A stretch of DNA of 64,000 nucleotides from an uncultured Acidobacteriota bacterium (lineage in GTDB: Bacteria; Acidobacteriota; Vicinamibacteria; Vicinamibacterales; 2-12-FULL-66-21): NCBI GenBank assembly GCA_963810305.1, contig CAWEMY010000005.1:525304-589303 (forward strand). The letters run 5' to 3'. A program made the position numbers and the translations under genes. Positions 1-62,584 of the stretch are shown here, piece after piece. Positions within the stretch are counted from its first letter, which is position 1, and each line of letters starts with the position of its first letter. The notes beneath the pieces are model-generated. The model was not told the origin of the DNA and ran no database searches. It saw nothing but the letters and a program-made list of their open reading frames with translations.

Positions 1-2057
1 CTGGTGGGCTGGAACGGATGCTGCTCGACGGGCCGTCAGCGCATCCGCGCTACCAGCTGCTGCTGCGCGAGATGTCGCGGCTTCAACGGTTCGAGGATGC
101 CGCCCCGGCGGAGATCCGCGCCATGCTCGATCGGGTATCGCTCCACTTTCTGACCCAGGACGGCAAGGCGCGGCGTGGGGGCGCAATCCCGCCGTACAAC
201 GCGGGCCATTGCCGCACCCCCGACATCGCGCGGCGCCATCGCGAGGCGGTCTTTGCCCTCGCGCCGCAGGTCGAACGGGTGATCCGCCAGTTCTCACGCG
301 ACTTCAACGTCGTCCTCGCGCGTGGGATCCGCCGGATGTTTGCCGTCGCGCTCGAGCAGTATCGCCGGACACTTGCCGCGCGCGCGGTCCTGGATTTCTC
401 CGACGTCCTCGAGCGGGCGCTCCAGCTGTTGCGTCGGATGGATGAATTCTCCCAGAGCCGCTTCCGTCTCGAATCGAGATACCACCACGTCCTGGTCGAC
501 GAGTTCCAGGACACGAGCCGCGCGCAGTGGGAACTGGTGTCACTGCTCATCGAATCGTGGGGTGAAGGGCTCGGACTCGTCTCGAATCCGTCGATCTTCA
601 TCGTCGGCGATCGCAAACAGTCGATCTATCGATTCCGCGACGCGGAAGTCGCGGTGCTGCAGGATGCCGGGAGATACATCGACGGCCTCAGACCGAATGG
701 ACGTGCGCGGCAATCGATCTCGCGCAGCTTCAGAGCCGCGCCCGAGCTGCTGGATTTCGTCAACGAGATCTGCGCGGAGATGACGTTGCCGGCCCGGCGT
801 CCCGACGCCTTCGTGTACCGCGATACGGATCGCTTCCCCGATACCGGGGCTGCGCGCGATCCCCGCGGCCCGGCGCTCGGCATCGCGGCGGCGGATGATC
901 CGGACGCATGCGCGGCAGCCGTCGCGACGGAAGTCGCTCGGATCCTTCGCGACGATGACGTGCGCGATCGCAAGACGGGTGTGCCGCGGCGGGCGAGACC
1001 CGGCGACATTGCGATCCTGTTCCGGTCGCGCACCAGCCACCGCGAGTTCGAGCAGGCCCTCGCGGAACAGAACATCCCGGCCTATGTCTACAAGGGACTC
1101 GGGTTTTTCGACTCGGACGAGATCAAGGACGCATCCGCGCTTCTCAGGTACCTCGCCCAACCGGAATCGGACCTCCGCGCCGCAGCGTTTCTCCGATCGC
1201 GCTTCGTCCGGCTGTCCGACAGGGGCCTGGCGGCGCTGGCGCCGGATCTCGCCGACGCCATTACCGGCGAGGGTGACCTGTCTGCTCTTGACGCGGAGGA
1301 CCGACGGGTCCTCGAACTCGTTCGCCAGACCGTGTCCGGCTGGCTGTCGGCCGCCGACCGCATACCGCCAGCCGAACTCTTCGAGCAGGTGCTCACCGAG
1401 GGAGCGTACCCGTATGAACTGCGGGGAAGGCGTTCGCAGCAGGCGTGGGAAAACCTCAAGAAGATGCGCGGCCTCGTCCGTCGGGTCCAGAACCGGGGCT
1501 ACGCGACGCTTGCGCGCATTGCGGATCACATCGACTCGCTCAGCGCCGGCGATGAATCGAACGCGGTGCTCGAAGCCATCGATGCGGTGAACCTGATGAC
1601 GATACACGCGTCGAAAGGGCTCGAATTCCCGATCGTCTTTGTCGTGAACATGGCGCGCGGAGCGGGCGGCCTGCCGCGGCCGGTGCGGGTCATCGCCGAT
1701 GGCGAGAACGGCCAGCCGTCGGTGTCGGTCAGCCCGTTCATCTCCGAATCGGACGATGTGGAGCGGGAGCGAGAGCAGCACGAAACGCGGCGCCTGATCT
1801 ATGTCGCCTTCACCCGTGCCCGCGACCGCCTCTACCTGTCATCGCCGCTCAAGGACGGATCCCTCCAGGCTGGCCGCGGCGGCCTGGCGGATGTGCTGCC
1901 GATCTCCTTGAGGGCGCTCTTCGGCGCTGCGGCGGCGTCCGCGGAAGACACGATCCGCTGGACGGCGGCGTCGGGCCGCGAGTTCACGTGGCGGCTTTGT
2001 CGCGCGCCGATCACTAGCGAGGCTCCGCCAGACCGTCGAGAGGCTCCGCCTCGCTAG
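1..2057 (+). CDS. UvrD/PcrA/AddA-type superfamily 1 DNA helicase, C-terminal ~680 aa (5' end lies upstream of the window)
   Basis: The frame of track ORF 18..2057 stays open back to base 3. SF1 motifs are present: VDEFQDTS, FIVGDRKQSIYRFR, TIHASKGLEFPIVFV, YVAFTRARDRLYLS. Confidence 0.9.
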   Translation, partial: GGLERMLLDGPSAHPRYQLLLREMSRLQRFEDAAPAEIRAMLDRVSLHFLTQDGKARRGGAIPPYNAGHCRTPDIARRHREAVFALAPQVERVIRQFSRDFNVVLARGIRRMFAVALEQYRRTLAARAVLDFSDVLERALQLLRRMDEFSQSRFRLESRYHHVLVDEFQDTSRAQWELVSLLIESWGEGLGLVSNPSIFIVGDRKQSIYRFRDAEVAVLQDAGRYIDGLRPNGRARQSISRSFRAAPELLDFVNEICAEMTLPARRPDAFVYRDTDRFPDTGAARDPRGPALGIAAADDPDACAAAVATEVARILRDDDVRDRKTGVPRRARPGDIAILFRSRTSHREFEQALAEQNIPAYVYKGLGFFDSDEIKDASALLRYLAQPESDLRAAAFLRSRFVRLSDRGLAALAPDLADAITGEGDLSALDAEDRRVLELVRQTVSGWLSAADRIPPAELFEQVLTEGAYPYELRGRRSQQAWENLKKMRGLVRRVQNRGYATLARIADHIDSLSAGDESNAVLEAIDAVNLMTIHASKGLEFPIVFVVNMARGAGGLPRPVRVIADGENGQPSVSVSPFISESDDVEREREQHETRRLIYVAFTRARDRLYLSSPLKDGSLQAGRGGLADVLPISLRALFGAAAASAEDTIRWTAASGREFTWRLCRAPITSEAPPDRREAPPR

Positions 2058-2519
2058 GTGGCATTTTTGATAAACGCCCCGCTGACGCGGGGACGGTCTT
2101 GCCCCGCAGAAAGCTTGACTCATTTGTACAAGTTCTGAGGGGTCAAGACCTCTAGCGACGGCTCGTGACGATTCCGTTGGACGGTGTTTCACAATGTGCG
2201 GCAGCTCGTAACCGCGGTTGTCGAACATCTGCACGGGAGGTGACTGCCTCCAAAAGGCCGGATTCGGTCGAGACTCGAAGCTAAGCCTCACCAGCTGAGC
2301 AAGTTCCATCGAAAGTGATTTTCATCAGTCCCCGGCGAACCGGAGGTTGTCTCCTGTGGATAACAGGTCGCGAGCATGGCGCGCACTGCTGTGCACGAGT
2401 CGCAAATCACTTTTCCGCAAGGATTTCCAACCGTGAAGGAACCAAAAGGGGCAAATGCCGGTCTAACGATTTAACTGGCGTTCAGATTGCATGGACGGCA
2501 TGCGACGGGAGGTGCGGTA

Positions 2520-2771
2520 ATGGCAGTTCCTGCTAGTGCCCTTAGTTACGTAAGACCCACGGCGACTGTGTTCGAGCTCGAAGCGCTCGAGGGGCTGCCG
2601 TGCGGCTGCGTAGCGGCCGCGTATCGCGCCCGTCCCTGGGATGTTGCCGTCGTTTCGCTCGAAGCGAAGGGTCCTCATTGCATTCTGGCCGGTCATGCGA
2701 GTGGCCAGGTGCTGCGGCTGGGGGATCCGGCGGAATTCGACGACGACGAAGAAGAGGAGTCGGACGAGTAG
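2520..2771 (+). CDS. Small hypothetical protein with poly-acidic C-terminus (DDDEEEESDE)
   Basis: Internal ATG of track ORF 2487..2771, preceded by GGGAGGTG about 6 nt upstream. The stop codon lies in the loop of a hairpin followed by a T-run. No family recognised. Confidence 0.5.
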   Translation: MAVPASALSYVRPTATVFELEALEGLPCGCVAAAYRARPWDVAVVSLEAKGPHCILAGHASGQVLRLGDPAEFDDDEEEESDE

Positions 2772-2790
2772 CCCTCGTCCGCCCTTTTTC
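2761..2790 (+). terminator. Candidate intrinsic terminator
   Basis: CGGACGAG (2761-2768) and CTCGTCCG (2774-2781) form an 8-bp stem around loop TAGCC, followed by CCCTTTTTCC. Confidence 0.5.
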
Positions 2791-2920
2791 CTGGCGCCCC
2801 CCCGAATCCCAGTCCCTCATCCCCCCTGCTGCCGCTAAGATCTTGATTGCGTACGTGAAAGCCGTCCGCGTACAATTTGGAGTTTCGAGCGGCTTTCTGT
2901 CGGTCGACGAGGAGTGTGGA

Positions 2921-3142
2921 ATGGCATTGACCTGTCCGAGCTGCGGGAACGACCAGAATTTTCTGGTCAAAACCCTGCAGATGCACGTCGTTCAGCTGCG
3001 TGAGTCGCGCGTGGAAGCCAGCGAGGAAGGGCGCCCCGCGGTGATCGAGCTGCTGTGCGACGAATGCGAAACGGCGTTGAATTTCAGCGATTTCGACGAA
3101 GACGTCCGGAACGAAGTCCTTCTGACCCTCGGCGCCCGCTAA
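2921..3142 (+). CDS. Small zinc-ribbon protein (73 aa)
   Basis: ATG at 2921 inside track ORF 2600..3142, with GGAG a few nt upstream. Two CxxC pairs (CPSC ... CDEC). The upstream part of the track ORF is Arg/Gly-rich and looks non-coding. Confidence 0.6.
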   Translation: MALTCPSCGNDQNFLVKTLQMHVVQLRESRVEASEEGRPAVIELLCDECETALNFSDFDEDVRNEVLLTLGAR

Positions 3143-3194
3143 GCCGGGCCGCCTCCTTCAGAGCGCCTGCGGCGCGATTCCTCGCTCACGTTTC

Positions 3195-3223
3195 TTGACT
3201 TCCCCGATCCCGGCTCCTATCGT
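3195..3223 (+). promoter_or_regulatory. Candidate sigma70-type promoter (TTGACT-N17-TATCGT)
   Basis: TTGACT at 3195-3200, a 17-nt spacer, then TATCGT at 3218-3223. It lies about 115 nt upstream of the J-domain gene. Sequence match only. Confidence 0.35.
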
Positions 3224-3323
3224 ACCGTCAACAGCGGCACCTGTTCTGCAGGGACGGTCAGAGGTGACCGGGACCGGCAGTCCGGGCGGCCCGGCGGGAG
3301 TGTACGGCGGTGGAACCGCCTGA

Positions 3324-3935
<612 letters not shown>

Positions 3936-3945
3936 CTCCCGGTTC

Positions 3946-4335
3946 ATGCGCCCTCACATCCGGCTGCTCGGCGTGCTGCAAGTGACGTGGGGCGGCATCG
4001 GTTTGCTGCTGGGGGTCGCAACCCTGTTGCTGGCGATCGGCGCCCTGGCCATTGGCCTGTTCAATTCTGGCGACCGGGTTGGCGCCGGCGTCACCGCGCT
4101 CACCTTCGGTGTCTTTGCCGCCGCGCTGCTCGCCGGCGGGGCCGCCAATGCGTGGGCAGGGCGGTCGCTGCGCCGCCAGGAACCGGCCGGAAGATCCGCC
4201 GTCATGTGGCTCGCGGTCCCGAATCTGTTTCTGCTGCCGTTTGGTACGGCGCTCGGGATCTATGCCTGGTGGGTGCTGCTCCACAACGAGTCGCGCACCA
4301 TGTTTGTCGGACCGGCCCGCTCGCCGTCGGGCTGA
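3946..4335 (+). CDS. Hypothetical integral membrane protein
   Basis: 129-aa ORF with several hydrophobic helices (GGIGLLLGVATLLLAIGALAIGLF...). Begins 10 nt after the previous stop. Confidence 0.6.
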   Translation: MRPHIRLLGVLQVTWGGIGLLLGVATLLLAIGALAIGLFNSGDRVGAGVTALTFGVFAAALLAGGAANAWAGRSLRRQEPAGRSAVMWLAVPNLFLLPFGTALGIYAWWVLLHNESRTMFVGPARSPSG

Positions 4336-4340
4336 TTACG

Positions 4341-4670
4341 ATGAACAAAACCGTCGGCGGGCTGGACGAAAACGTCGGAGGCGCGCTTACCTACGCGTTC
4401 GGCTGGATCACCGGCGCCGTCTTTCTGCTGCTCGAGCCCACCAACAAGTTCGTCCGCTTTCACGCGTGGCAGTCGGTCATCGTTTTCGGCGGTCTCTCGA
4501 TTGCGTGGTTCGTGGCGCTGTCGCTGCTGTTCCCCCTCGGCTGGTTCGTGGCCTTTCCGATCATCCTTCCGCTTTCGGCTGTGCTCTGGCTGCTGCTGAT
4601 GTTCAAGGCCTACCGCGGCGAGCGCTACAAATTGCCGTTCGCCGGCGAAATGGCGGAACAGCGCGAGTAG
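4341..4670 (+). CDS. DUF4870-like small membrane protein
   Basis: ATG at 4341 inside track ORF 3987..4670. The pattern NKFVRFHAWQS ... KAYRGERYKLP resembles the DUF4870 family as I remember it. Three predicted TM helices. Confidence 0.65.
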   Translation: MNKTVGGLDENVGGALTYAFGWITGAVFLLLEPTNKFVRFHAWQSVIVFGGLSIAWFVALSLLFPLGWFVAFPIILPLSAVLWLLLMFKAYRGERYKLPFAGEMAEQRE

Positions 4671-4688
4671 TCGATACACTGTAAAGAA

Positions 4689-5780
4689 ATGGCAACTGTT
4701 TCCGAAGCGGCGGTCCTCGACGCGCTCCGCGGCGTGCAGGATCCTGACCTCAAACGCGACATCGTTTCGCTCAAGTTCATCAAGAACCTGCGGATCGAAG
4801 GGGACCGCGTTCGGTTCTCGATCGAGCTCACAACGCCTGCCTGTCCGGTGAAGGACCAGATGCGAGAACAGGCGCGGCAGCTGGTTGCGGCGCTGCCCGG
4901 CGTTTCAGCCGTCGACATCGAGATGACCTTTCAGGTGCGCGCGACGGTTTCTTCCGACGTGAATCGTCAGCCGGTTCCAGGGGTGAAGAACATCATCGCG
5001 GTGGGCGCGGGGAAGGGTGGCGTCGGCAAGACCACGGTCTCTGTCAACCTGGCCATCGCGCTCAGCCAGCGCGGAGCGCGTGTCGCGATGATCGACGGCG
5101 ACGTCTACGGGCCCAACGTGCCGATCATGCTCGGGATCAACACCCAGCTCCAGACCGACGGGCAGAAGATCGTCCCGGCGGAGCAGTACGGCCTGCAACT
5201 CGTATCGATGGCGTTTCTGACCAGTGATGATTCGCCGGTGATCTGGCGAGGCCCGATGCTGCACGGCGTGATCAATCAGTTCTTCCGCGAAGTGAAGTGG
5301 GACGCGGTGGACTACCTGATCGTTGATATGCCTCCCGGTACCGGTGACATCGCCCTCAGCCTCAGCCAATCGGTCCCCGTCTCCGGCGCGGTGGTGGTCA
5401 CGACCCCGCAGACCGTGTCAGTGGCCGATACGCGGCGGGCCGTGCGGATGTACCAGAAACTGAACGTGCCGACGCTGGGGCTGATCGAGAACATGAGCCA
5501 CTTCGTCTGCCCGTCGTGCTCGCACGAGAGCGACATCTTTGGCAAGGGAGGAGGCGAGGCGCTGGCAACCGAGCTCGCCGTTCCCTTCCTCGGCCGCGTG
5601 CCGCTCTACGAGCCGATTCGAGTCGGCGGCGATACCGGGGTCCCGATCACCGTCGGTGAGCCGGATTCGCCCGCCGCCCGCGCCCTGCGCTCGGCGGCGG
5701 AACAGCTGGCGGCGCAGCTTTCGATCGCCAATTACAACTCGAGCGCGAAGCGGGCGATTCCGTTGGTGCAGGTGAGATAG
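4689..5780 (+). CDS. apbC: Mrp/NBP35/ApbC-type Fe-S cluster carrier ATPase with N-terminal DUF59-like domain
   Basis: Deviant Walker A GKGGVGKTT and a CPSC pair (FVCPSCSHESDIFG). Typical length, 363 aa. Confidence 0.92.
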   Translation: MATVSEAAVLDALRGVQDPDLKRDIVSLKFIKNLRIEGDRVRFSIELTTPACPVKDQMREQARQLVAALPGVSAVDIEMTFQVRATVSSDVNRQPVPGVKNIIAVGAGKGGVGKTTVSVNLAIALSQRGARVAMIDGDVYGPNVPIMLGINTQLQTDGQKIVPAEQYGLQLVSMAFLTSDDSPVIWRGPMLHGVINQFFREVKWDAVDYLIVDMPPGTGDIALSLSQSVPVSGAVVVTTPQTVSVADTRRAVRMYQKLNVPTLGLIENMSHFVCPSCSHESDIFGKGGGEALATELAVPFLGRVPLYEPIRVGGDTGVPITVGEPDSPAARALRSAAEQLAAQLSIANYNSSAKRAIPLVQVR

Positions 5781-5917
5781 ACGCGGGGCGCGGGGCGCGG
5801 GTCGCAGTGCGGGATGCGCGGTGCGGGATGCGGGATGCGCCTTACACACAACCCGATTCGCGCCACGCCCGCGCCCTGCGAACCGCGCCCTGCGAACCGC
5901 GCACCGCGCCCCGCGCA
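5781..5917. repeat. Intergenic heptamer-repeat block arranged as an imperfect inverted repeat
   Basis: 5782-5837 holds about 8 units of CGCGGGG/CGGGATG type. 5870-5918 holds units CCGCGCC/CTGCGAA, whose complement is the same unit type. It fills the whole gap between convergent apbC and the MFS gene. Confidence 0.8.
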
Positions 5918-7090
5918 CTACGCGCCGCGTGACGGGCGAAGGCGACTCATCGCCATGGCGCCGAGGATCGGGCCGGGCACGAGCAGCAGGAACGCCCACC
6001 GCCATCCATAGCTGGCCGCGACGAGCGGCAGCAGTCTCATGCTCACCATTGTCAACAAGAAGCCGGCGCAGGTTTGGAGTGTCAGCGCGGTGCCGACGTG
6101 CGTGCGCGCGCTGTATTCGCTGACCAGCGCGGAGAACTGCGCGGAGTCGGCAACGACGGAAAAGCCCCAGATCACCGCAAGAACCAGTAACGCCTCGAGC
6201 GGCATGGCGTAGAGCAGCCCGGCGGCGGCCGAACAGGCGCCGCTGGTGATGAGGGCGAGGCGTGCGATTCGCGCTTTTCCCCAGCGATCCGCCCACAGCC
6301 CGGCGACAACGCAACCAGCCGCGCCGCTGGCAATCGCCACAAACGCGACGAGCGATCCGCTGCGGCTGTCCTCTGCCCCGGCTGCCGCCAGCGAGGCTGC
6401 GGCAAACGCAGCGATCCACGCCCACATCGCGTAGAGCTCCCACATGTGCCCGAGGTACCCGTAGGTGGCGAGCCGGGCGCCGCGGTTACGCACGACGGCG
6501 CCAAGCGCGTGCCGATCGAACGGCGCCGATGCCGCAACGTGCGGGCCGTCCTTGACGAAGAGATGGACGATGGCACCGCCAATGACGGCGAGCATCGAGG
6601 AACTCAGCATCAGCGTCCGCCACGACAGGTCGGCGGCACTCCACGACAGAAGGTGCGGAAACGCCGAGCCGAGGGTCAAAGCACCGACCACGACGCCAAG
6701 CGCGCTGCCTCGCCGCTCGAGAAACCAGCCGGCGGCGATTTTCATTCCCGGCGGATACACGCACGCGAGCGCCGCCCCGGTCAGCAGGCGCAGGGCAATG
6801 ATGGTCGATCCATCGGACGACCAGGCGATCGCCGCATTCGCCGCGGCGCCGGCGACACAGCCTGCGGCGAACAGCCGACGGGCGTTGAAAACATCCGCAA
6901 GGTTGAGCACGGCGCTGATCAGCGTTCCGGCAACGAACCCTCCCTGCACGGCGATGGTCAGCCACGCCGTCGCCGATTCCCCCAGAGCCAGCTCCGACGC
7001 AATGCGCGGCGCCGCTGCCGTTGCCGAAAACCACAGCGTCATTCCGAAAAACTGTCCGAGCGCAACGAGCGCCAGCATTCGCTGCGGCAT
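5918..7090 (-). CDS. MFS transporter (390 aa)
   Basis: C-terminal 390 aa of track ORF 5918..9088, starting MPQRMLALVALGQFFG. About 12 hydrophobic helices. The rest of that 1056-aa ORF is antisense to ggt. Confidence 0.85.
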   Translation of the reverse strand: MPQRMLALVALGQFFGMTLWFSATAAAPRIASELALGESATAWLTIAVQGGFVAGTLISAVLNLADVFNARRLFAAGCVAGAAANAAIAWSSDGSTIIALRLLTGAALACVYPPGMKIAAGWFLERRGSALGVVVGALTLGSAFPHLLSWSAADLSWRTLMLSSSMLAVIGGAIVHLFVKDGPHVAASAPFDRHALGAVVRNRGARLATYGYLGHMWELYAMWAWIAAFAAASLAAAGAEDSRSGSLVAFVAIASGAAGCVVAGLWADRWGKARIARLALITSGACSAAAGLLYAMPLEALLVLAVIWGFSVVADSAQFSALVSEYSARTHVGTALTLQTCAGFLLTMVSMRLLPLVAASYGWRWAFLLLVPGPILGAMAMSRLRPSRGA

Positions 7091-7132
7091 TTGGCGTTTT
7101 ACGATGGGCGAGAATGCCGGTAGGATGCAACT

Positions 7133-8980
7133 GTGAAATGGGGGACGCGGTGCGCGGGTCGCGGGGCGCGGGGCGCGGGGCGGGTTGTGGCGATCGTCGC
7201 CGCGTTGGGCATTCACGTTTCGGCGCAGCAGACCTTCAAGCCGATTCGCAGTGAAGTCCGCGCGGACCACGGCGTCGTGGCCGCCGGGCGGACGTTTGTG
7301 GCCGATGCCGGCGCACAGATGCTCGTGTCGGGGGGAAATGCGATCGACGCCGGCGTCGCGTCGATGTTCGCGTCCGCGGTGACCGAGATCTCGCATTTCG
7401 GCCTCGGGGGTGAAGCGCCGATCATCATCTACTCCGCGCGCGACCGGCGGGTCGTCGTGATCAACGGTCAAGGATCCGCGCCCAAGGGAGCGTCCCCGGC
7501 ACTGTTCGAGGGAAAGACCGCGATTCCGGGTAACGGGCCGCTGGGCGCCACCATTCCGGCAGCGGTCGACGCCGCGGCGCTCGCCCTGGAGAAGTACGGC
7601 ACCAAGTCGCTCGCGGAAGTCATGGCGCCGGCGATCGCGCTTGCCGACGGCTTCCCGATGTACGAGTTCCTGCGCGGCTACCTGCAATCCGAACGCAAGG
7701 CCTCGGAACCTTACGAGTGGTCGATCCGTACCTACTATCCCGACGGCAAGATCACCCCCGTCGGGGAGATGTTCCGACAGCCGAACCTCGCGGCCACGTT
7801 GCGGGCGCTGGTCGCCGCGGAGGCGCAGGCCAGAAGCGGCGGCGCGACGCGGGAGCAGGCGATCGTGGCTGGACGCGACGCCTTCTACAAGGGATCCATC
7901 GCCACGCGCATGACCGCGGCGGTCCGTGCGGCCGGCGGTGTGATGACCGACGACGATCTGGCGACCTACCGCGGCAAGGTCGAGGAACCCGCAACCGTGC
8001 CGTACCGGGGATTCACGGTCCACAAGGCCGGCTTCTGGAATCAGGGGCCGGCGCTGCTGCAGACGTTGCGTATCCTCGAGGGCTTCGATCTCGCGAAGAT
8101 GGGGCAGGGATCCGCCGACGCGACCCACACGATCGTCGAAGCGGTGAAGCTTGCGTACGCGGACCGGGACCGTTATTACGCGGATCCGGACTTTGCGCGG
8201 GTTCCGGGGCCGGCATTGCTGTCCGCGGAATACGCGACCGTGCGCCGCGCCTTGATCGATCCCGCGCACGCCAGTATCGAGCAGCGGCCGGGTGATCCAG
8301 AGCGCGGCGCGGCACGTATCGGTACAGATATTCCGGTAGAGGCCGGCTTTAGCCGGCCTGACAGGCCGGGCTCCAGCGTCCACCCAGAACCAGGTGACAC
8401 CACCTCGATCCAGGTTGCCGATGCGGCGGGAAATCTGTTTTCGGCCACGCCGAGTTCCGGATGGCTGCTCGGCGGCGCCTTTGTCGCGGGCGACACCGGT
8501 GTGCCGATGAGCAACCGGATGCAGGCCTTCCGGCTCGAGCCCTCCAGCCCGAACGTGCTCGCCGGCGGTAAACGTCCGCGGACGACGCTCACTCCGACCG
8601 TCGTGTTGAAGGACGGCAAGCCGTTTCTCGCAATCGGCACACCCGGCGGCGACAGCCAGGACCAGCAGATCCTGCTCGTCCTGTTGAACATCATCGACTT
8701 CGGTCTCGACGTGCAGGCCGCGATCGAGGCGCCGCGGGTCAACTCGCTGCATCCGCAGAGCTCGTTCGACGATCATCGCGCGCAGCCTGGCGTCCTCGAA
8801 GTCGAACGGACGCTTGCGCCCGACGTTCTCGAAGTACTGCGGTCCCGCGGGCACGTGCTGCGGCTCCGCACGCCGTACGGCATCTCGACGGGAGTGGTCG
8901 CCGCGGGCATCGATCCTGTCACCGGACGCCTGCGTGGCGGCGCCGATCCACGCCGCGAGCGCGCGCTGGTTGCCTACTAG
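7133..8980 (+). CDS. ggt: Gamma-glutamyltransferase family protein
   Basis: 615 aa with a signal-like N-terminus. The autoprocessing/nucleophile region is PGDTTSIQVADAAGN, and GTPGGDSQ is also present. GTG start at 7133. Confidence 0.9.
   Translation: MKWGTRCAGRGARGAGRVVAIVAALGIHVSAQQTFKPIRSEVRADHGVVAAGRTFVADAGAQMLVSGGNAIDAGVASMFASAVTEISHFGLGGEAPIIIYSARDRRVVVINGQGSAPKGASPALFEGKTAIPGNGPLGATIPAAVDAAALALEKYGTKSLAEVMAPAIALADGFPMYEFLRGYLQSERKASEPYEWSIRTYYPDGKITPVGEMFRQPNLAATLRALVAAEAQARSGGATREQAIVAGRDAFYKGSIATRMTAAVRAAGGVMTDDDLATYRGKVEEPATVPYRGFTVHKAGFWNQGPALLQTLRILEGFDLAKMGQGSADATHTIVEAVKLAYADRDRYYADPDFARVPGPALLSAEYATVRRALIDPAHASIEQRPGDPERGAARIGTDIPVEAGFSRPDRPGSSVHPEPGDTTSIQVADAAGNLFSATPSSGWLLGGAFVAGDTGVPMSNRMQAFRLEPSSPNVLAGGKRPRTTLTPTVVLKDGKPFLAIGTPGGDSQDQQILLVLLNIIDFGLDVQAAIEAPRVNSLHPQSSFDDHRAQPGVLEVERTLAPDVLEVLRSRGHVLRLRTPYGISTGVVAAGIDPVTGRLRGGADPRRERALVAY
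7146..7187 (+). repeat. Six tandem heptamers (CGCGGGG type) inside the first 18 codons of ggt
   Basis: The units are CGCGGTG CGCGGGT CGCGGGG CGCGGGG CGCGGGG CGGGTTG. This is the same unit family as 5782-5837. It encodes the GRGARGAGR n-region of the putative signal peptide. Confidence 0.8.
8336..8368 (+). repeat. Hairpin repeat element (GTAGAGGCCGGCTTTAGCCGGCCT + GACAGGCCGG) in frame within ggt
   Basis: The 9-bp arms AGGCCGGCT/AGCCGGCCT are identical to the copies at 49146-49241 and 59823-59870. Here it is translated as VEAGFSRPDRP. Confidence 0.8.
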
Positions 8981-8999
8981 GACGCCGGCGCCTGCTGCG

Positions 9000-10310
9000 A
9001 TGGAGATCTCTTTCAGCCACCGGACCCTCGATAATGGATTGGACGTCCTCGTCCACCAGGACCGCAATTGCCCGATCGTCGCGGTCAACGTCTGGTACCA
9101 CGTCGGATCGAAGAACGAGAAGCCGGGCCGGACCGGTTTCGCCCATCTCTTCGAACACCTGATGTTCGAAGGCTCGCAGCACTACGACCACGGATTCTTT
9201 CAGCCCCTGCAGCAGGCGGGAGCGTCTTTGAACGGATCGACCAACGCGGATCGGACGAACTACTGGGAGGTCGTCCCGCGCAACGCCCTCGAGCTCGCGT
9301 TGTGGATGGAATCAGATCGGATGGGTTATCTCCTGCCGGCGCTGACCGAAGCCAAGTTCAACAACCAGCGCGAGGTTGTGCTGAACGAGCGCCGCCAGAA
9401 CTATGAAAACCGGCCGTACGGGCTTGCCGGGATGGCGCTCGTCGCCGAGCTGTACGCGCCCGATCATCCGTATCACTGGCTCACCATTGGCGCCGCCGAG
9501 GATCTTCGCGCCGCGACATTGGACGATGTGCGTGCCTTCTTTCAGCGCTACTACCATCCGGCGAACGCGTCGCTCGCCCTCGCCGGGGACGTCGACATCG
9601 ACGAGGCGTTCGACCTGGCGGAGAAGTATTTCGGCGACCTTCCGTCGCCCGGGCTGCCTGGCCCCGTCGTAGCCGAGAATCCGGCTCCCCGGACGGCCGA
9701 CGTACGGCTGGTGCTCGAAGATCGAATCGAGTTGCCGCGCCTTTACCTCGCCTGGCATTCCCCGGCGCTGTTCGGAGAAGAAGATGCCGCGCTCGATCTC
9801 GTCGCTGACGTGCTGGCCGGGGGGAAGACGTCGCGGCTGTACCGCTCACTCGTGTACGAGCAGCGCATCGCCACCGAAGTCGCGGCGTCGCAGAATTCCC
9901 GCGAGCTTTCCGGCTACTTTCACGTCGTGGCCACCGCCGCACCGGGACACTCGCTCGAGGAGCTGGAGAAGGCGATCGCGGCGGAGCTCGCAAAAGTGAA
10001 TGCCGACGGGCCCACGGCCGCTGAGATGGAGCGGGGGATTGCCCAGGCGGAGGCGCATTTCATTTCGCGGCTGCAGACGGTCGGCGGATTCGGTGGCAAG
10101 TCGGACCAGCTGAATGCCTACAACGTGTTTCTCGGCGATCCCGCCTTTTTCGACCGTGATCTCGCACGCTATCGCAACGCCACGGCCGCCGATCTGACGC
10201 GCGCCGCCGTCGCGTGGCTTGGGCCGAGCTCGCGTGTGGCTCTCAGTGTCGTGCCGCGCGGCCGCCCGGAGCTGGCCCTGCCAGGGTCGGCGCCGGTGTC
10301 GGTGCACTGA
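9000..10310 (+). CDS. M16 (pitrilysin) family zinc peptidase, catalytic-type subunit
   Basis: ATG at 9000 inside track ORF 8814..10310. The inverted zinc motif HxxEH is present (HLFEH, followed by LMFEGS). Confidence 0.9.
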   Translation: MEISFSHRTLDNGLDVLVHQDRNCPIVAVNVWYHVGSKNEKPGRTGFAHLFEHLMFEGSQHYDHGFFQPLQQAGASLNGSTNADRTNYWEVVPRNALELALWMESDRMGYLLPALTEAKFNNQREVVLNERRQNYENRPYGLAGMALVAELYAPDHPYHWLTIGAAEDLRAATLDDVRAFFQRYYHPANASLALAGDVDIDEAFDLAEKYFGDLPSPGLPGPVVAENPAPRTADVRLVLEDRIELPRLYLAWHSPALFGEEDAALDLVADVLAGGKTSRLYRSLVYEQRIATEVAASQNSRELSGYFHVVATAAPGHSLEELEKAIAAELAKVNADGPTAAEMERGIAQAEAHFISRLQTVGGFGGKSDQLNAYNVFLGDPAFFDRDLARYRNATAADLTRAAVAWLGPSSRVALSVVPRGRPELALPGSAPVSVH

Positions 10311-11671
10311 TGCGCGCCGATCGCAGTCGTCTCCCGCCGAGCGGCGCTCTCGCGCCGTTCCAGTTCCCGGCCATTCAGCGAACGCCACTCGGCAACGGCC
10401 TCCAGGTGTGGACGATCGAGCAGCGCGCCGTCCCGCTGATCACCGTACTCCTCCTCCTCCGTCGCGGGTCGGCGGCCGATCCTGCCGGCCACGAAGGTCT
10501 CGCGGCGATCACCGGTGATCTGCTGGACGAGGGTGCCGGGGCGCTCGACGCGCTGGAGTTCCACGAGGCGCTGGGGCGCATCGGCGGACAGATCGACACT
10601 GAGGTCAGCGCCGACGCCACGCTGCTCGGCCTGACGGTGCTGTCCCGGTTCGCCGATCGCGGTTTCTCGCTACTCGGCGACATGATCCAGCGCCCGCGAC
10701 TCGAGCGCGCTGACTTCGACCGCGTCCGCGATCTTCGTCTGAACCGACTAATACAGATGCGCGACCTGCCACCGGCACTTGCGGACCGCGCGTTCACGGA
10801 ACTGCTTTATCAGAGCCATCCCTACGGGCACCTGGCGATCGGCAGTGAGGGCTCGCTCCGCGCGCTGACGCTTGCGGACGTGCAGCAGTTTCACGCGCAC
10901 ACCTACAGCCCGCAGGGTGCGACGGTGATCGCTGCCGGCGACGCCAGCCACGACGAGCTGCGGGCGCTGATCGCGGACGCTCTCAGGGACTGGAGTGGCA
11001 CGACCGCCGACCGGCAGGGAGATCGTGTGACATCGACACCGCCGCCTCCTGCCGGGCGCCTTGCCCTTCTCCACAGGGCGGGGGCCGCGCAGTCCGAATT
11101 GCGTCTCGGGCATGTGTCGATCGCCCGCAGCGATCCGGATTACACGCGCCTGCTCGTGCTGAACATGGTGCTTGGCGGCCAGTTCGTCAGCCGCATCAAC
11201 ATGAACCTCCGCGAAAAGCGCGGCTACACCTATGGCGCGCGCACCAGCTTCGACACGCGACGTGGCCCGGGTCCTTTCGTTCTCCAGGCGAGTGTCCAGT
11301 CCGAATCGACCGCCGACGCGATACGAGAGGCGGTTCGTGAGGTGGAGGAAATCCGCGGGCCGCGGCCGATCACCGGCGAGGAGCTCGACACCGGAAGGGC
11401 CGCATTGACGCGTGGCTATGCGCGCAACTTCGAGACCGCCGAACAGGTCGCGCGCGCCGCCACGCAGATGGCGCTTCACGATCTGCCGGACGACTACTAC
11501 AGCACCTTCGTGCAGCGCGTGCTGGCGATCGACGAGGCGTCCGCCACCACCGCCGCTGAACAGCACCTGCACCCCGAACGGATGCTCACCGTCGTCGTTG
11601 GTGATCGCGACCGCATCGGGGAGTCTCTCGAAACTCTGGGCCTTGGCCAGCCGATGGAATTGGGGCCCTAG
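10310..11671 (+). CDS. M16 family peptidase-like protein lacking HxxEH (non-catalytic partner)
   Basis: ATG at 10310 overlaps the upstream TGA (TGATG). M16 fold-like sequence with no HxxEH motif. Confidence 0.85.
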   Translation: MRADRSRLPPSGALAPFQFPAIQRTPLGNGLQVWTIEQRAVPLITVLLLLRRGSAADPAGHEGLAAITGDLLDEGAGALDALEFHEALGRIGGQIDTEVSADATLLGLTVLSRFADRGFSLLGDMIQRPRLERADFDRVRDLRLNRLIQMRDLPPALADRAFTELLYQSHPYGHLAIGSEGSLRALTLADVQQFHAHTYSPQGATVIAAGDASHDELRALIADALRDWSGTTADRQGDRVTSTPPPPAGRLALLHRAGAAQSELRLGHVSIARSDPDYTRLLVLNMVLGGQFVSRINMNLREKRGYTYGARTSFDTRRGPGPFVLQASVQSESTADAIREAVREVEEIRGPRPITGEELDTGRAALTRGYARNFETAEQVARAATQMALHDLPDDYYSTFVQRVLAIDEASATTAAEQHLHPERMLTVVVGDRDRIGESLETLGLGQPMELGP

Positions 11672-11844
11672 TGGAGCGTACACTCGAGATGTAAAGCATG
11701 GACGCGGGTGGACGCGAACGGGGCCGCCCCGCGTGGCGCGGAGTGCACTCCCGTTACAAGCGCTCTTGCACGAGCACCACGTGGGGCTGTTCGCGGACAG
11801 GACCCGCCTGCGGTGCTTTACATCTGTCCGGCACGCTCCACTAG
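11668..11844. repeat. 177-bp element bounded by ~31-bp imperfect terminal inverted repeats (MITE-like or structured RNA)
   Basis: CTAGTGGAGCGT (11668-11679) pairs with ACGCTCCACTAG (11833-11844). GATGTAAAGCA (11688-11698) pairs with TGCTTTACATC (11814-11824). The left end overlaps the TAG stop of the M16 gene. Confidence 0.6.
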
Positions 11845-11868
11845 AACTCGTGGACCCGGGCACCGGAC

Positions 11869-12888
11869 ATGAAAGCCGTACGATTTCATCACCATGGCGG
11901 TCCTGAGGTTCTGTGCTATGAAGACGCGCCGGATCCGGTCCCGTCGACGGGCCGCGCCATCGTCCGAGTACGCGCGTGCGCCCTGAACCACCTGGATCTC
12001 TGGCAACGCCGCGGGATCGAACGCGTACGGATCCCGTTGCCGCACATCTCCGGCGCCGATGTGGCTGGCGAGGTCGTCGATACGGGCGGCGGCACGATTG
12101 CCGCCGGGACGCGCGTACTTCTTCAGCCCGGATTGAGCTGCGGCACGTGTCGGATGTGCGCGGCCGGCCTCGACAATCTCTGTCCGGACTACGATGTCCT
12201 CGGCTACATGTCCGACGGCGGCTACGCCGAGTTCGTGTCCGTGCCTGTCGGGAACCTGGTCCCGATCCCGGATGCGATCGATTTCACAATAGCCTCGGCA
12301 TTTCCGCTGACTTTTCTCACGGCGTGGCACATGCTGATCACCCGCGCCGCTTTGACGCCAGGCGACACCGTCCTCGTCCTTGCGGCCGGGAGCGGCGTGG
12401 GCCAGGCCGCCATTCAGATCGCGAAACACCACGGCGCGCGCGTCTTCGCGACGGCGTCACCGGCGAAATTGCAGCAGGCGTGTGAGCTCGGCGCGGAAGA
12501 GGCGTTCGACCACCATTCCGGTGATTTCGCCAGGGAGCTGCGGGCTCGCACCGGCGGCCGCGGCGCCGACATCGTCGTCGAGCACGTCGGTGAGGCGACC
12601 TGGGAGCGCAGTGTCCGCGCATTGGCCCGCGGCGGCAGGCTGGTGACATGTGGGGCAACGACGGGGCACCAGGCCGGCATCGATCTGCGGCATCTTTTTG
12701 CAAGGCAACTGTCATTGCTCGGCTGCTACATGGGCAGGAAAGCTGAGCTCGTGGCCGCCGCGGCGCTCTTTTTCGCAGGCAGGCTGACGCCCGTCGTCGA
12801 CGAGGTCATGCCTCTGGAGAACGCCCGGGCCGCCCACGAACGCCTGGAGGCCGCCAGGCAGTTTGGAAAGATCGTTCTGGTGCCATAG
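11869..12888 (+). CDS. MDR-family zinc-binding alcohol dehydrogenase / quinone oxidoreductase-like protein
   Basis: 339 aa. GroES-like N-terminus and a Rossmann motif AAGSGVGQAAIQIAKHHGA. Confidence 0.85.
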   Translation: MKAVRFHHHGGPEVLCYEDAPDPVPSTGRAIVRVRACALNHLDLWQRRGIERVRIPLPHISGADVAGEVVDTGGGTIAAGTRVLLQPGLSCGTCRMCAAGLDNLCPDYDVLGYMSDGGYAEFVSVPVGNLVPIPDAIDFTIASAFPLTFLTAWHMLITRAALTPGDTVLVLAAGSGVGQAAIQIAKHHGARVFATASPAKLQQACELGAEEAFDHHSGDFARELRARTGGRGADIVVEHVGEATWERSVRALARGGRLVTCGATTGHQAGIDLRHLFARQLSLLGCYMGRKAELVAAAALFFAGRLTPVVDEVMPLENARAAHERLEAARQFGKIVLVP

Positions 12889-12968
12889 GAACCGTCGCGG
12901 CGCACCTTCCGTCAAACTGACAGTTAACCTGCGGCCGTGTTCGGCGTTATAGACTGTACGAACCTGCC

Positions 12969-13172
12969 ATGAGCTTCGCCAGGCTGAGCCTCAGTCTCGC
13001 GGCCGTGATCGGCCTTATTGCGACCGCGCTTGCCGGCGCGACCATCTGGCTGCTAATCACCAATCCGGTTGACGTCGCCGAAGCCGTCGCGACGGGCGAA
13101 GTCTCTCCGCTCATGCGCGCGCTTGCCGGCGCCCTCTACAACGCCCTCGAAGGAATCGTCAAATATCTGTAG
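12969..13172 (+). CDS. Small hypothetical membrane protein (67 aa)
   Basis: One clear TM helix (LSLAAVIGLIATALAGATIWLLI). The stop codon lies inside the 28-nt palindrome. No Shine-Dalgarno sequence seen. Confidence 0.45.
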   Translation: MSFARLSLSLAAVIGLIATALAGATIWLLITNPVDVAEAVATGEVSPLMRALAGALYNALEGIVKYL

Positions 13173-13196
13173 GGGCGGTTCGCGAACCGCCCCTAC
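13169..13196. terminator. 28-nt perfect palindrome GTAGGGGCGGTTCGCGAACCGCCCCTAC between convergent genes
   Basis: 14+14 nt perfect arms. It contains the TAG stop of 12969..13172 and lies 4 nt from the stop of the minus-strand hydrolase gene. Confidence 0.7.
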
Positions 13197-13200
13197 AACG

Positions 13201-14262
13201 TCACTCCAGCGCTCGGCGCAAGAACCTGCAGAGGGCGAGCCCGTCCATCCATTTGAACGGCGAGACGCCGGTGCTGTAGTGGCCGCATGGCAGCACTTTG
13301 GTTTGATGCGGCACGCCTCGGGCCTTGAAGTCGGACACCAGCAGGCGCGACAGGGCGAGGGGGAACGTCAGGTCGTACAGCGCATAGACAAGCAGCGTCT
13401 GGCGGTCCATGACTCGATCCAGATACGGCCGCGGCGAGATCGGCATCCAGATCCGCCTCAGGGTTTCGAGGTTGACGTTGCCGTCGAGTGATTGACGCAC
13501 GTGCTCGGTGGAGAGTCCCTCCCAGATGACGTCTGCGAAGTACGGCGAAATGTGATTGAGCGCCGCCGCCTTCACAAGTGGTTCGTGTGCCGTCGTCAAC
13601 ATCGCCAGGCACGAGCCGAGGCTGGTGCCGAGCACGCCGATTGATTCGAATCCCTCTTGGTGCAGCCAGGCGATGGAGCGGCGCGCATCCAGAACGGCCT
13701 GCCGGTTGATGGCAATGGTTCGCCCGACGTTGGCGCTCACGATGTAGTCGGCACGCTTCAGTTCCGGCGGCATGCGCGCCTCGTGATAGGGGAGGGTGAG
13801 CCGCAGCGCCGACAGCCCGAATCGATTCAGCAAGCGGCATAGACCGACATGCCCCTCCGAATCCGCGTTCCACTGTGGCATCACAAGGACCGCGCGTTTT
13901 TTGCCGTTCTGCGAGGCAGGGAAGAAGCGGGCGATCACCGTGTTGTTTTCGGGATGCGGCGTGACGACGGCGCTCTGGAACGTCAGCCGGTCGCCATCGA
14001 CCGAGTACTCGCCCGGGGTTACCGCGAAAAAGTCCTGGCTGCGGCGCAACGCCTCATCGGCCCAGGCCATGAGACGCACCGCAGGGTCGCCGGGAACGTC
14101 CGGTAAGTCCGGCACCCATTCGAGGCCCCAGGCAAACGGACGGACTGTCCTGTTTTCAGCAGCTGCGGCAAGCCTCCGCTCCCAGTTATGAAAGGCTCGC
14201 GTCAGCACAGCTGTTCCTCTGGAAGGGATGTTGCAGCGGACTCTGCATGCATGAACAGCCAC
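13201..14262 (-). CDS. Alpha/beta-hydrolase fold protein
   Basis: 353-aa ORF with the nucleophile-elbow motif GTSLG (IGVLGTSLGSCLA). The exact start is uncertain. Confidence 0.75.
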   Translation of the reverse strand: MAVHACRVRCNIPSRGTAVLTRAFHNWERRLAAAAENRTVRPFAWGLEWVPDLPDVPGDPAVRLMAWADEALRRSQDFFAVTPGEYSVDGDRLTFQSAVVTPHPENNTVIARFFPASQNGKKRAVLVMPQWNADSEGHVGLCRLLNRFGLSALRLTLPYHEARMPPELKRADYIVSANVGRTIAINRQAVLDARRSIAWLHQEGFESIGVLGTSLGSCLAMLTTAHEPLVKAAALNHISPYFADVIWEGLSTEHVRQSLDGNVNLETLRRIWMPISPRPYLDRVMDRQTLLVYALYDLTFPLALSRLLVSDFKARGVPHQTKVLPCGHYSTGVSPFKWMDGLALCRFLRRALE

Positions 14263-14365
14263 CGCAGCCCGATGTTCCGCAGCCGCCGGACGTCATCAAG
14301 CGTCCGCAGCCCGTCAACAAGCCGATACCGTCCGGTGAACCGGTCCCTGAAGATCGTCCTGACGT

Positions 14366-15710
14366 TCACCCGGTGCCGCCCCCAACCGATCCCGGGCCCG
14401 CCGTGATCTGAGTCTCCATGGTCGCGGCGGCACCGAGCAGTTGATCGGTCTCTCCTGTGCGGCCGACAAGCTGCATGGCGATCGGCAGACCCGTCGACGT
14501 GACGCCGGCCGGCAACGAGATCGCCGGGTGTCCAGTGAGATTGAAAAGCTGTGTCAATCGCAGCATCGCCGCCCGGACAGGTTCCGGGCGGCCGTCGATG
14601 TCAACCGATCCGACGCCGAGCGGCGGCGCGGCGATTGGCAACGTCGGAAGCAGAAGCGCATCGCATCCAGCAAGCGCACTGTCAACTTCCCGGGTGAGCC
14701 GTTTCCGCAACCGCATCCCCCGCACGTAATCTTCCGCCAGCACGTACCGGCCGGTTTCAAGCCTGTTTCTCACCTGGGGTGAATAGAGCGCCGCGTGCTG
14801 TTCGAGCAGCGGCGCGTGGTACGCGGCGGCTTCGGGCAGGACGATGTGCAGGTACACGTCAGGCGTTGACCGCGCGTGGCCAATTGCGGCGTTGACGATG
14901 CGATGGCCCCGCGACTCGAGTGCGGCCTGCACCCGGTCGAGGGCGCTACGGATTTCGGGATCGAGCCGCTCGAGCAGGTAACCATCTGGAATACCGAGAA
15001 TCAGAGCGACCGGCGCGGATCCTTCGACAACCCTCCTGCCGCGCAAGACACCGAACATCAGCGCCGCGTCTTTGACCGATAACGTCATGGGCCCGACGTG
15101 ATCGCAGGTAGTACTCAGCGGGACCACGCCGTCGCACGGCACCTCGCCCAGTGTGGGTTTGAGGCCGACAATGCCGCATGCCGCGGCGGGGATCCGGATC
15201 GATCCGCCCGTATCGGTGCCGATCGATCCCATGCACATGCCTTCGACGAGCGCAACGGCGGCGCCGCCGCTGGACCCGCCTGCCGAGCGCGACGGATCGA
15301 AAGGGTTTCTGTACCGGGCCGAACGCGGACTCATCGCTGGTCGTGCCGAAAGCGAACTCATGGAGATTGGTCTTCCCTATGATGATCGCGCCCGCCTGCC
15401 GCAACCGCTGGACGATAGGCGCGTCGGCGGTCGGGCGCGTCGGCGGCAGCGCCGATCCCGATGTCGTCGGCACACCGGCGACGTGGACGAGATCCTTGAT
15501 CGAAACGGGGATCCCATGCAGCGGGCCGCGATAGTCACCGCGCCGGAGCTCCTTCATCGCCGCTTCAGCGTCGGCCAGAGCGCTGTCGGCCAGGACGGTG
15601 ATGAATGCGTTCAGCTCCGAGCGTGCTTCGATCCGCTTCAGGCAGGTCCGAACGAGATCCACGGGAGAGATTTCTCCACTCGCGATGCGCGGGGCAGTTT
15701 CGGCGATCAT
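14366..15710 (-). pseudogene. Amidase-signature family amidase, split by one frame change near 15311
   Basis: Track ORF 14946..15710 carries the N-terminus up to ...TSDESAFGPV. Track ORF 14366..15361 continues with RNPFDPSRSAGGSSGGAAV and the rest of the domain. Removing one base restores GPVRNPFD. Confidence 0.85.
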
Positions 15711-15856
15711 TCCTTTTGATCGGCGGGACCCGCCGCGTCGGCTTCGCGCAGGGCTTCAGTCGATTTCGCGATCGCTTCGAGCAGCGGTTTGAGCGCCGGC
15801 AGTCCGCGGCGTTCCGCGTCGGCGATGGCGCTCTTCAGCCAGTCCTGGACGGTCAT
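15707..15856 (-). CDS. Small hypothetical protein (49 aa) translationally coupled to the amidase
   Basis: ATG at 15856 overlaps the upstream stop (TGATG), and its own stop overlaps the amidase ATG (ATGA). Sequence MTVQDWLKSAIADAERRGLPALKPLLEAIAKS... No family recognised with confidence. Confidence 0.4.
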   Translation of the reverse strand: MTVQDWLKSAIADAERRGLPALKPLLEAIAKSTEALREADAAGPADQKE

Positions 15857-20220: not shown

Positions 20221-20267
20221 TCGCTTATCCCCAAGAACAGATCCCGCATCCCGGATCCCGGCTCCGC
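20198..20267. repeat. Heptamer tandem repeats (GATCGCT / GATCCCG type)
   Basis: The first array is GATCCCG GATCGCT GATCGCT GATCGCT TATCCCC (20198-20232). The second is GATCCCG CATCCCG GATCCCG GCTCCGC (20240-20267). Looser copies run on to about 20335. The block overlaps the nhaA 3' end. Confidence 0.65.
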
Positions 20268-33686: not shown

Positions 33687-33770
<84 letters not shown>

Positions 33771-49050: not shown

Positions 49051-49137
49051 TGGTGCGAAAGGGGGGATTCGAACCCCCACGTTCTTGCGAACGCCAGCCC
49101 CTCAAGCTGGTGCGTCTGCCAGTTCCGCCACTTTCGC
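49051..49137 (-). tRNA. tRNA-Leu (anticodon GAG), CCA encoded
   Basis: Reverse complement: GCGAAAG acceptor stem pairing with CTTTCGC, anticodon stem CCAGC/GCTGG with loop TTGAGGG, a long variable arm, T-arm GGGGGTTCGAATCCCCC, and 3' ACCA. Confidence 0.95.
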
Positions 49138-58920: not shown

Positions 58921-58976
58921 GTGCGACGTGCGACGTGCGACGTGCGACGTGCGACGTGCTACGTGCTAGGTGCCAA
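58921..58976. repeat. Eight tandem heptamers GTGCGAC (5 perfect, 3 degenerate) between pgk and tpiA
   Basis: GTGCGAC x5, then GTGCTAC, GTGCTAG, GTGCCAA. The last units encode the final pgk codons and its TAG stop. Confidence 0.85.
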
Positions 58977-62579: not shown

Positions 62580-62584
62580 GAAGC

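Follow-up and report, generated by a model that had tools for sequence, protein, structure and literature searches.

We analysed a 64,000-nucleotide window of a genome contig (CAWEMY010000005.1) from an uncultured Acidobacteriota bacterium of the order Vicinamibacterales, and focused on the 137-nt spacer between apbC, which encodes an Fe-S cluster carrier ATPase, and a convergent MFS transporter gene. This spacer is one case of an order-wide class of intergenic repeats with a period of 7 nt. It is probably a hypermutable pair of heptanucleotide microsatellites in opposite orientation, produced by slippage and inverted copying, and the hairpin that the two arms are predicted to form would be a by-product of that process. 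Arrays of this class evolve by unit steps and at a much higher rate than the sequence around them; they are excluded from coding sequence and stay clear of start codons. Inverted pairs are common among them and, by computed folds, are expected to form strong structures.

The repeat content of the spacer was determined with Tandem Repeats Finder and by a register parse. A first-pass annotation, made by a model from the letters of the sequence, had described the whole convergent spacer as heptamers in inverted orientation, with about 8 tandem 7-mers in the left half; both statements held, the left half containing about 8.4 units (Table 1). Its estimate of about 18 nt for the unique centre was too low, as this segment measures 28 nt. 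Read in register, the left arm consists of CGCGGGG, CGCGGGG, CGCGGGT, CGCAGTG, CGGGATG, CGCGGTG, CGGGATG and CGGGATG, and the reverse complement of the right arm of CGCGGCG, CGTAGTG, CGCGGGG, CGCGGTG, CGCGGTT, CGCAGGG, CGCGGTT and CGCAGGG, so that the register parse assigns both arms to a common unit family, CGCRGKK. Tandem Repeats Finder reported CGCGGGG x3.4 at 5782–5805 (period 7, 94% matches), TGCGGGA x4.6 at 5808–5839 (period 7), CCGCGCCCTGCGAA x2.4 at 5869–5902 (period 14, 100% matches) and 8.7 copies of a period-7 unit across 5869–5929; the last 12 nt of the right arm overlap the 3' end of the MFS gene. With at least three head-to-tail 7-nt units, a non-coding position and polymorphism among strains, the spacer has the attributes of a heptanucleotide simple sequence repeat. 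Mirror-perfect concerted evolution of the two arms was considered and is not supported: the order of the variants differs between the arms, and strains change one arm by one unit and leave the other as it is.

To count such arrays, at least 3 copies and at least 86% self-identity were demanded. The main set comprised 83 loci (1.52 Mb), namely the window, two ENA metagenome contigs (L001 and L002) and 80 genome contigs; together with an independent set of JGI metagenome contigs (377 kb) the sample came to about 1.9 Mb on about 160 related contigs. By its ApbC protein the window belongs to uncultured Vicinamibacterales, the nearest species-level genome showing 94% amino-acid identity. The 83 loci hold 115 arrays of period 7, against 39 of period 6, 25 of period 8 and 30 of period 9, while composition-preserving shuffles of the same loci gave means of 0.8 for period 7 and 13.2, 1.4 and 0.2 for periods 6, 8 and 9. 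The JGI contigs yielded 50 arrays of period 7 and 15, 6 and 4 of periods 6, 8 and 9, and the overall density is about 75–130 arrays per Mb of sampled sequence. The first-pass annotation had named as refuting a period 7 no commoner than other periods, and the counts show the contrary. Three high-GC or enteric controls (a Ralstonia megaplasmid, S. meliloti pSymB and E. coli K-12; 250 kb) contained 12, 0, 0 and 2 arrays of periods 6 to 9; as none of these is of period 7, the trait is not a universal one but enriched in this lineage. In the 83 loci, 23 of 25 period-8 arrays and 28 of 30 period-9 arrays are likewise intergenic, and the phenomenon is a spread of repeats of 7–9 nt that peaks sharply at 7 and extends beyond period 7 alone. 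The arrays are not assembly artefacts, being present in many independent assemblies, among them short-read contigs, megabase contigs and complete chromosomes. Within the window itself there are 10 period-7 arrays, periods 5, 6 and 8 having 1–3 each and periods 9 and 10 having none; a simple period scan returned periods 7, 14 and 21 only, and Tandem Repeats Finder also lists period-21 versions of the heptamer arrays.

The position of the arrays relative to genes is highly uneven. No open reading frame (ORF) traverses 107 of the 115 period-7 arrays (93%), though approximately 85% of the DNA is coding. The edge of an array lies a median of 10 nt from the stop codon that faces it (39 of 73 are within 10 nt, and several overlap the stop), and a median of 44 nt from a predicted start. 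Of 62 arrays, 16 lie in convergent spacers, more than the background share of 76 of 696 would give, and 5 lie in divergent spacers, fewer than the background share of 94 of 696. Genes were called with a codon log-likelihood caller, which did better than two GC3-based callers that mis-joined or mis-oriented genes. The units themselves are highly diverse within and across genomes, dozens being unrelated, and are present in 3 to 30 copies. GC skew on the mRNA strand is evenly split (19 arrays positive, 19 negative), and there is no purine bias either. Since the units are diverse and show no strand bias, a mutational process is favoured over a single binding motif. A preference for a Rho-loading (C-rich) or a G-rich strand was rejected on the same even split.

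A reverse-complement partner was scored when two copies of the reverse-complement unit (at least 12/14 matches) occurred within 200 nt. Such partners were found for 36 of 94 merged arrays, as opposed to 3 of 94 with foreign flanks, and for 13 of 42 arrays in the independent JGI set, as opposed to none with foreign flanks. For the apbC/MFS spacer the predicted fold is one hairpin of 50 pairs (41 GC, 5 AU and 4 GU) at -96 kcal/mol; dinucleotide shuffles had a mean of -74.8 and none of 200 was as stable (z = -5.2), in agreement with the long imperfect hairpin anticipated by the first-pass annotation. The outermost pair is 5782–5915, so that 2 nt separate the hairpin base from either stop codon. 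In other genomes, the orthologous spacer that follows apbC was also predicted to form a heptamer hairpin, with fold z values of -3.6 to -7.6, from unrelated units: GATCNCT/AGGGATC in contigs L003 and L083, CAGCTTC/GCTGGAA in L020, CTCAGAA/AGTTCTT in L025, AATGATG/CATTCAT in L030 and GGCTCAC/GTGAGCC in L041. Some other orthologous apbC spacers have hardly any sequence between the genes, or no hairpin.

Turnover was followed by comparing the window with L001 and L002 over window positions 1–15856. Pairwise identities among the three over these 16 kb are 97.4%, 96.5% and 98.6%, and the larger indels are mostly intergenic, one being located at a hairpin insertion in the gamma-glutamyltranspeptidase gene. 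The apbC/MFS spacer can be aligned among the three at its two edges only; its interior is scrambled, and in L001 and L002 it is made of different GC-rich heptamers, including GTGCGAC, the unit of two other arrays in the window. The array at 7142–7182 differs in length and sequence in each strain, and about 68 extra nucleotides are present between the MFS and gamma-glutamyltranspeptidase genes at L001 12411–12478 (equivalent to window 7140). The start codon of the latter gene is called differently among the strains because of the variable spacer sequence on its MFS side. At a second convergent slot (13173–13200) the window carries a plain 22-nt GC palindrome, while L001 (18353–18440) and L002 (18508–18602) carry an AT-rich heptamer hairpin of 70–90 nt, (TAACTTC)n/(AGTAGTT)n, with fold z values of -8.6 and -6.9; the latter two are exactly one 7-nt unit apart. 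Between L003 and L083 the difference is 8 nt in the left arm and 14 nt in the right. Additional sister strains were sought by exact look-up of the window TpiA protein and by searching JGI metagenomes for exact 22-nt matches to the conserved 3' flank of apbC, neither of which gave a match, and a protein-based metagenome scan found no relative closer than 94% amino-acid identity.

Other segments in this comparison also differ among the strains. The extra segment in L001 includes a palindromic element, CCGCGCAAAGCGC...CGCCGTAGCCTTGGCGAAGGCGG, and L002 has yet another sequence at this place. A stretch of 138 nt (window 2016–2153), present in the window and L001, is absent from L002; it holds the last 40 or so nucleotides and the stop of a gene ending at 2057, together with the hairpin repeats CTAGCGAGGCTCCGCC...GGCTCCGCCTCGCTAG and CCCCGCTGACGCGGGG, and is one more sign that gene ends and spacers turn over quickly. 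About 165 nt of another spacer (window 11672–11835), bounded by the inverted repeats CTAGTGGAGCGT...ACGCTCCACTAG, are lacking in L001 and look like an insertion resembling a miniature inverted-repeat transposable element (MITE); their counterpart in L002 is an unrelated replacement sequence with heptamer-like repeats.

In the mechanism that we propose, slipped-strand mispairing in 7-nt steps would make and resize the arrays, and inverted duplication or a template switch would place units on the opposite strand and so create the second arm. Expansion, contraction and scrambling would then continue, much faster than point substitution, with the instability of long palindromes possibly adding to the turnover. 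Arrays would accumulate where they are harmless, that is, flush with stop codons and away from start codons. Both convergent transcripts of the apbC/MFS pair would read the G-rich arm and then its C-rich complement, giving a hairpin of about 50 bp 2 nt past the stop, and this hairpin would most likely be a roadblock against both read-through and 3' exonucleases, at a place otherwise taken by a plain terminator hairpin. A bidirectional transcript-end role of this kind, put forward in the first-pass annotation, is plausible but not conserved. Support comes from the location at gene ends, from the exchange of a plain for a heptamer hairpin at 13173, and from canonical T-tract terminators not being enriched (7 observed against 11.2 expected). 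The roadblock looks like a tolerated or opportunistic by-product and not like a conserved, selected structure.

A number of results weigh against this account. Similar-unit pairs among different spacers of one genome were found in 13 of 50 cases, against 3.3 expected (1 of 5000 permutations), and the sharing persists when the window is excluded. Purely local slippage from random seeds is insufficient, and some dispersal or genome-specific bias is needed; the slippage reading also leaves the step size of 7 nt unaccounted for. The terminator role is weakened by the absence of U-tracts, by the loss of the hairpin in the nearest strains and by the direct-only majority of arrays. No T- or A-tract stands beside the apbC/MFS stem, whose flanks are GAGATAGA and CTACGCGCC; the corresponding spacers of L001 and L002 form no single hairpin beyond shuffles (z = -0.15 and +1.17); and hairpin-forming arrays are in convergent locations in 7 of 21 cases, compared with 9 of 41 for direct-only arrays, which is no clear excess. 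The gene-context figures are approximate, as our own codon log-likelihood caller missed the MFS gene itself, and the sampled loci all come from the apbC neighbourhood and are syntenic, hence non-independent.

The shared units consist of the repeats alone. Heptamer tracts align among four sites of the CGCGGGG type and between two GTGCGAC sites, and their flanks do not; because the flanks outside the arrays fail to align, no larger mobile element lies behind the shared units. A bolder proposal, which we regard as unlikely, is that Vicinamibacterales may run an active, sequence-agnostic process that makes 7-nt arrays, places copies of them on the opposite strand and spreads them to further spacers of the genome, the resulting self-renewing hairpins serving as the main factor-independent transcript-end signals. 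Such a dispersing process would account for the genome-specific unit families. If it were true, the order would lend itself well to asking why long repeats in bacteria favour exactly seven bases.

The inverted arrays could instead be functional and under selection, terminating transcripts in both directions or stabilising mRNA 3' ends in the manner of a repetitive extragenic palindromic (REP) element or an "I-shaped" GC-rich terminator, with the repeats as the lineage's way of building and renewing hairpins; we consider this possible, though doubtful. The hairpin base lies 2 nt from both stop codons and arrays are enriched beside stop codons and in convergent spacers, but proximity to stop codons is equally expected if arrays merely survive where they are harmless. 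Unrelated heptamer hairpins occupy the apbC-MFS spacer in several lineages, and plain or heptamer hairpins alternate in one convergent slot of sister strains, as a selected function would lead one to expect, yet L001 and L002 have no single hairpin at the apbC/MFS spacer and some orthologous spacers are nearly absent or hairpin-free. Among the features of an intrinsic terminator, a stable GC-rich hairpin follows both stops and the U-tract is lacking; a terminator scan with a T-tract criterion gave no match at the apbC/MFS spacer, and at Rfam gathering thresholds the spacer matches no family, the only match being one tRNA elsewhere. That canonical T-tract terminators are not enriched also speaks for a selected function. 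About two-thirds of the arrays, however, are direct-only and unstructured, including the one in the pgk-tpiA spacer, which lies in a likely operon.

The first-pass annotation had further suggested that the G-rich arm fits a G-quadruplex pattern. By regular-expression scan, six G3-4 tracts are present at 5785–5834 and match a quadruplex motif solely with loops of up to 12 nt, so the suggestion stands for relaxed loops and fails under the standard G3+N1-7 rule; the related array at 7156–7184 passes the strict rule. The quadruplex idea for this arm is weak, and that such a structure, in DNA or RNA, regulates apbC or the MFS gene, as proposed for the GGGNATC repeats of Xanthomonas and Nostoc, is very unlikely. 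G-tract heptamer repeats of other bacteria form quadruplexes in vitro (PMC4692102). In the present spacer the complementary C-rich arm, 28 nt away, would compete by forming the -96 kcal/mol hairpin. A G3 or C3 run is found in just 26 of 94 array units, so a quadruplex cannot be a general property of the class; many units are AT-rich (e.g., AATGATG and TAACTTC), and there is no preference for G over C relative to the direction of transcription.

Equally improbable, in our estimation, is that the arrays are phased sites for a factor attuned to the 7-nt register, whether a regulator, a nucleoid protein or an RNA-binding factor. The genome-specific unit families would suit such a factor, three units (21 bp) correspond to two helical turns and period-21 versions appear in the Tandem Repeats Finder output, and heptamers have been put forward as regulator sites in Geobacter (PMC2700814) and Beggiatoaceae (PMC4679880); against this stand the dozens of unrelated units across and within genomes, copy numbers from 3 to 30, the avoidance of starts and promoters, the absence of strand bias and neighbouring genes that share no common function. 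A MITE- or REP-like miniature mobile element with repetitive terminal inverted repeats, to which the inverted architecture, the recurrence of the spacer's heptamers at other window sites and the inserted palindromic elements in other spacers of the lineage might point, is largely refuted by the lack of conserved ends and target duplications, by unalignable sequence outside the arrays and by units that differ among genomes at the apbC/MFS spacer, as is an assembly artefact by the arrays turning up in three assemblies of the species that are independent of one another and on about 80 further contigs, which cover many projects and both types of sequencing.

Table 1. Coordinates of the apbC/MFS spacer, its flanking genes and the other heptamer arrays and hairpins of the window.
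Feature	Position	Strand	Context and basis
apbC/mrp-type Fe-S cluster carrier ATPase gene	4689–5780	+	ORF; TAG stop 5778–5780
MFS transporter gene, convergent with apbC	5918–7078	-	TAG stop (minus strand) 5918–5920
Whole spacer (137 nt), imperfect palindrome of two heptamer arrays	5781–5917		Between the two stop codons
Left arm, ~8.4 G-rich heptamers	5782–5840	+	Tandem Repeats Finder, register parse
Non-repeat centre, 28 nt, CCTTACACACAACCCGATTCGCGCCACG	5841–5868		Hairpin loop and weakly paired tip; gap between Tandem Repeats Finder arrays
Right arm, ~9 heptamers, reverse complement of left-arm family	5869–5929	-	Tandem Repeats Finder, register parse
GGGGCGC (= CGCGGGG) x5.9	7142–7182	+	Divergent spacer, MFS/gamma-glutamyltranspeptidase genes; Tandem Repeats Finder
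Plain perfect GC hairpin GGGGCGGTTCGCGAACCGCCCC (counting stop-codon G at 13172)	13173–13194		Convergent spacer; fold z = -3.1
GATCGCT x3.6 and GATCCCG x3.7 arrays	20205–20265	+	Between two plus-strand genes; Tandem Repeats Finder
GTTCGCG x6.9 then GCGCCCC x4.4	33687–33768	+	Partial hairpin, fold z = -2.4
GTGCGAC direct-only array, ~7 copies	58921–58973	+	Between minus-strand pgk and tpiA; fold z = 0.4
CGTGCGA x11.7, direct-only, GTGCGAC-type unit	62584–62668	+	Begins 4 nt past stop codon; fold z = 0.5

The flanking genes were identified as follows. The 363-aa ApbC protein is identical on L001 and L002 and matches the Pfam families FeS_assembly_P, ParA and CbiA; an MFS_1 Pfam match was obtained on the orthologous convergent neighbour of apbC in L001 and L002. 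The start codon of the MFS gene in the window is ATG at 7076–7078, or an in-frame alternative at 7088–7090.

Across the window, CGCGGGGCGCGGGG has 8 matches with at most one mismatch (0.58 expected), the CGCGGGG type spanning three spacers, and the GCGCCCC unit at 33687–33768 is the reverse complement of this family. GTGCGAC has 12 matches (0.18 expected), located in two spacers. Both direct-only arrays of the GTGCGAC type are predicted to be unstructured (z about 0), and the pgk stop codon sits within the degenerate end of the array at 58921–58973. Heptamers that contain GATC (GATCGCT, GATCCCG and AGGGATC) produce dense GATC clusters at window 20205–20265, at L003 5642–5760 and at L083 3913–4040.

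Palindromes of a different kind were observed inside genes and beside a tRNA. A REP-like GC hairpin, GAGGCCGGCTTTAGCCGGCCTGAC, is present in frame in the gamma-glutamyltranspeptidase gene (7187–8980) at window 8335–8375 and in pgk (58959–60149) at 59822–59855, where both copies translate as EAGFSRPD; the pgk copy is followed by a 12-nt tandem that encodes SRPDSRPDSRPG. The insertion in the gamma-glutamyltranspeptidase gene immediately precedes the autoprocessing threonine, is different in all three strains, and in L001 and L002 marks the point at which the gene is split into two called ORFs. These intragenic hairpins resemble the in-frame palindromic insertions known from Rickettsia. Beside the tRNA at 49054–49137 lie 2.7 tandem copies of a 35-nt unit, CAGGCCGGCTAAAGCCGGCCTCTACCTGTCGAAGAC (49146–49241); every copy holds a GGCCGGC...GCCGGCC hairpin core, as in the intragenic insertions, and the cluster is probably of the type of REP sequences and bacterial interspersed mosaic elements (BIME).

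The significance of these repeats lies in an abundant case with diverse units. With units as diverse as these, what is constrained must be the 7-nt step itself and no particular motif. Where the repeats take the frequent inverted-pair form, they make long hairpins at the ends of genes, and natural strain pairs display unit-step changes as well as wholesale replacement of spacers. In practical terms, the spacers are hypervariable markers by which to separate strains of soil Acidobacteria that are very common and for the most part uncultured, and they are likely trouble spots for assembly, for the calling of gene starts and for terminator prediction.

In cyanobacteria, heptamer repeats have been on record since 1990. 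The first-pass annotation had likened the spacer to the short tandemly repeated repetitive (STRR) sequences of that group, and the likeness is apt, period 7 being strongly over-represented in the sampled window and its relatives. As in the STRR sequences of Calothrix and Nostoc, tandem heptanucleotides are intergenic, a few unit families recur per genome, and variability is sufficient for strain fingerprinting. In contrast, the STRR unit sequences themselves are absent here, where the units are CGCGGGG, CGGGATG and GTGCGAC, among others, and the host belongs to a different phylum. To our knowledge, the inverted-pair hairpin architecture is not a defining trait of STRR sequences.

The closest described system is formed by the GGGAATC repeats of Xanthomonas and the GGGGA(C/T)T repeats of Nostoc (Rehm et al., 2015; PMC4692102). 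That paper describes tandem 7-nt units that are genome-wide and strongly non-coding, lie mainly within about 50 bp of stop codons and sometimes overlap them, are scarcer between divergent genes, vary in length and sequence among close relatives, and follow no single gene class; inverted copies capable of forming stem-loops are mentioned. Each of these traits recurs in our data. Unlike the present case, those genomes are dominated by one G-tract unit with four copies preferred and a quadruplex logic, whereas here dozens of unrelated units occur, many without a G-tract, in an Acidobacteriota host, and about one-third of the arrays are paired with their reverse complement in predicted hairpins of 20–50 bp. 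No GGGNATC or GGGGAYT unit is present at apbC/MFS, where the units are CGCGGGG and CGGGATG; GGGAT-type units occur elsewhere in the order. Heptamers have also been found over-represented among the simple sequence repeats of many bacterial genomes, and slippage over a polymerase footprint was offered as an explanation (Mrazek, Guo and Shah, 2007, as summarised in PMC4692102). Our data agree with that summary in the prominence of period 7 and in the non-pathogen, high G+C profile given for the longer runs.

The TAACTGA repeats of Beggiatoaceae, Cyanobacteria and Bacteroidetes (MacGregor, 2015; PMC4679880) are likewise abundant intergenic direct repeats of heptamers. They are a single fixed unit placed mostly just upstream of starts, with a suggested translational role and one inverted set among 170, while the present units are diverse, stop-adjacent and often inverted. 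The four-heptamer elements of Geobacter are further relatives (PMC2700814). With REP/BIME sequences and bidirectional intrinsic terminators the spacer would share a transcribed palindrome placed right after convergent genes and able to stop or protect both transcripts; it differs in having no palindrome consensus and no U- or A-tracts, in not being conserved even between strains, and in a stem about ten times as long as that of a typical terminator. A multi-copy consensus with ends outside the simple repeat, by which REP, BIME and MITE elements are recognised, was not found at the four CGCGGGG-type and two GTGCGAC sites. The statement in the first-pass annotation that such arrays were undescribed for this kind of genome holds in the searchable literature, where no paper links heptamer repeats with Acidobacteria, although a heptamer excess has been reported for many bacteria (Mrazek 2007, as cited in PMC4692102). 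The spacer belongs to an established type of repeat, in a lineage from which that type appears to be unreported, with sequence-agnostic units, frequent hairpin pairing and genome-specific families as additional features.

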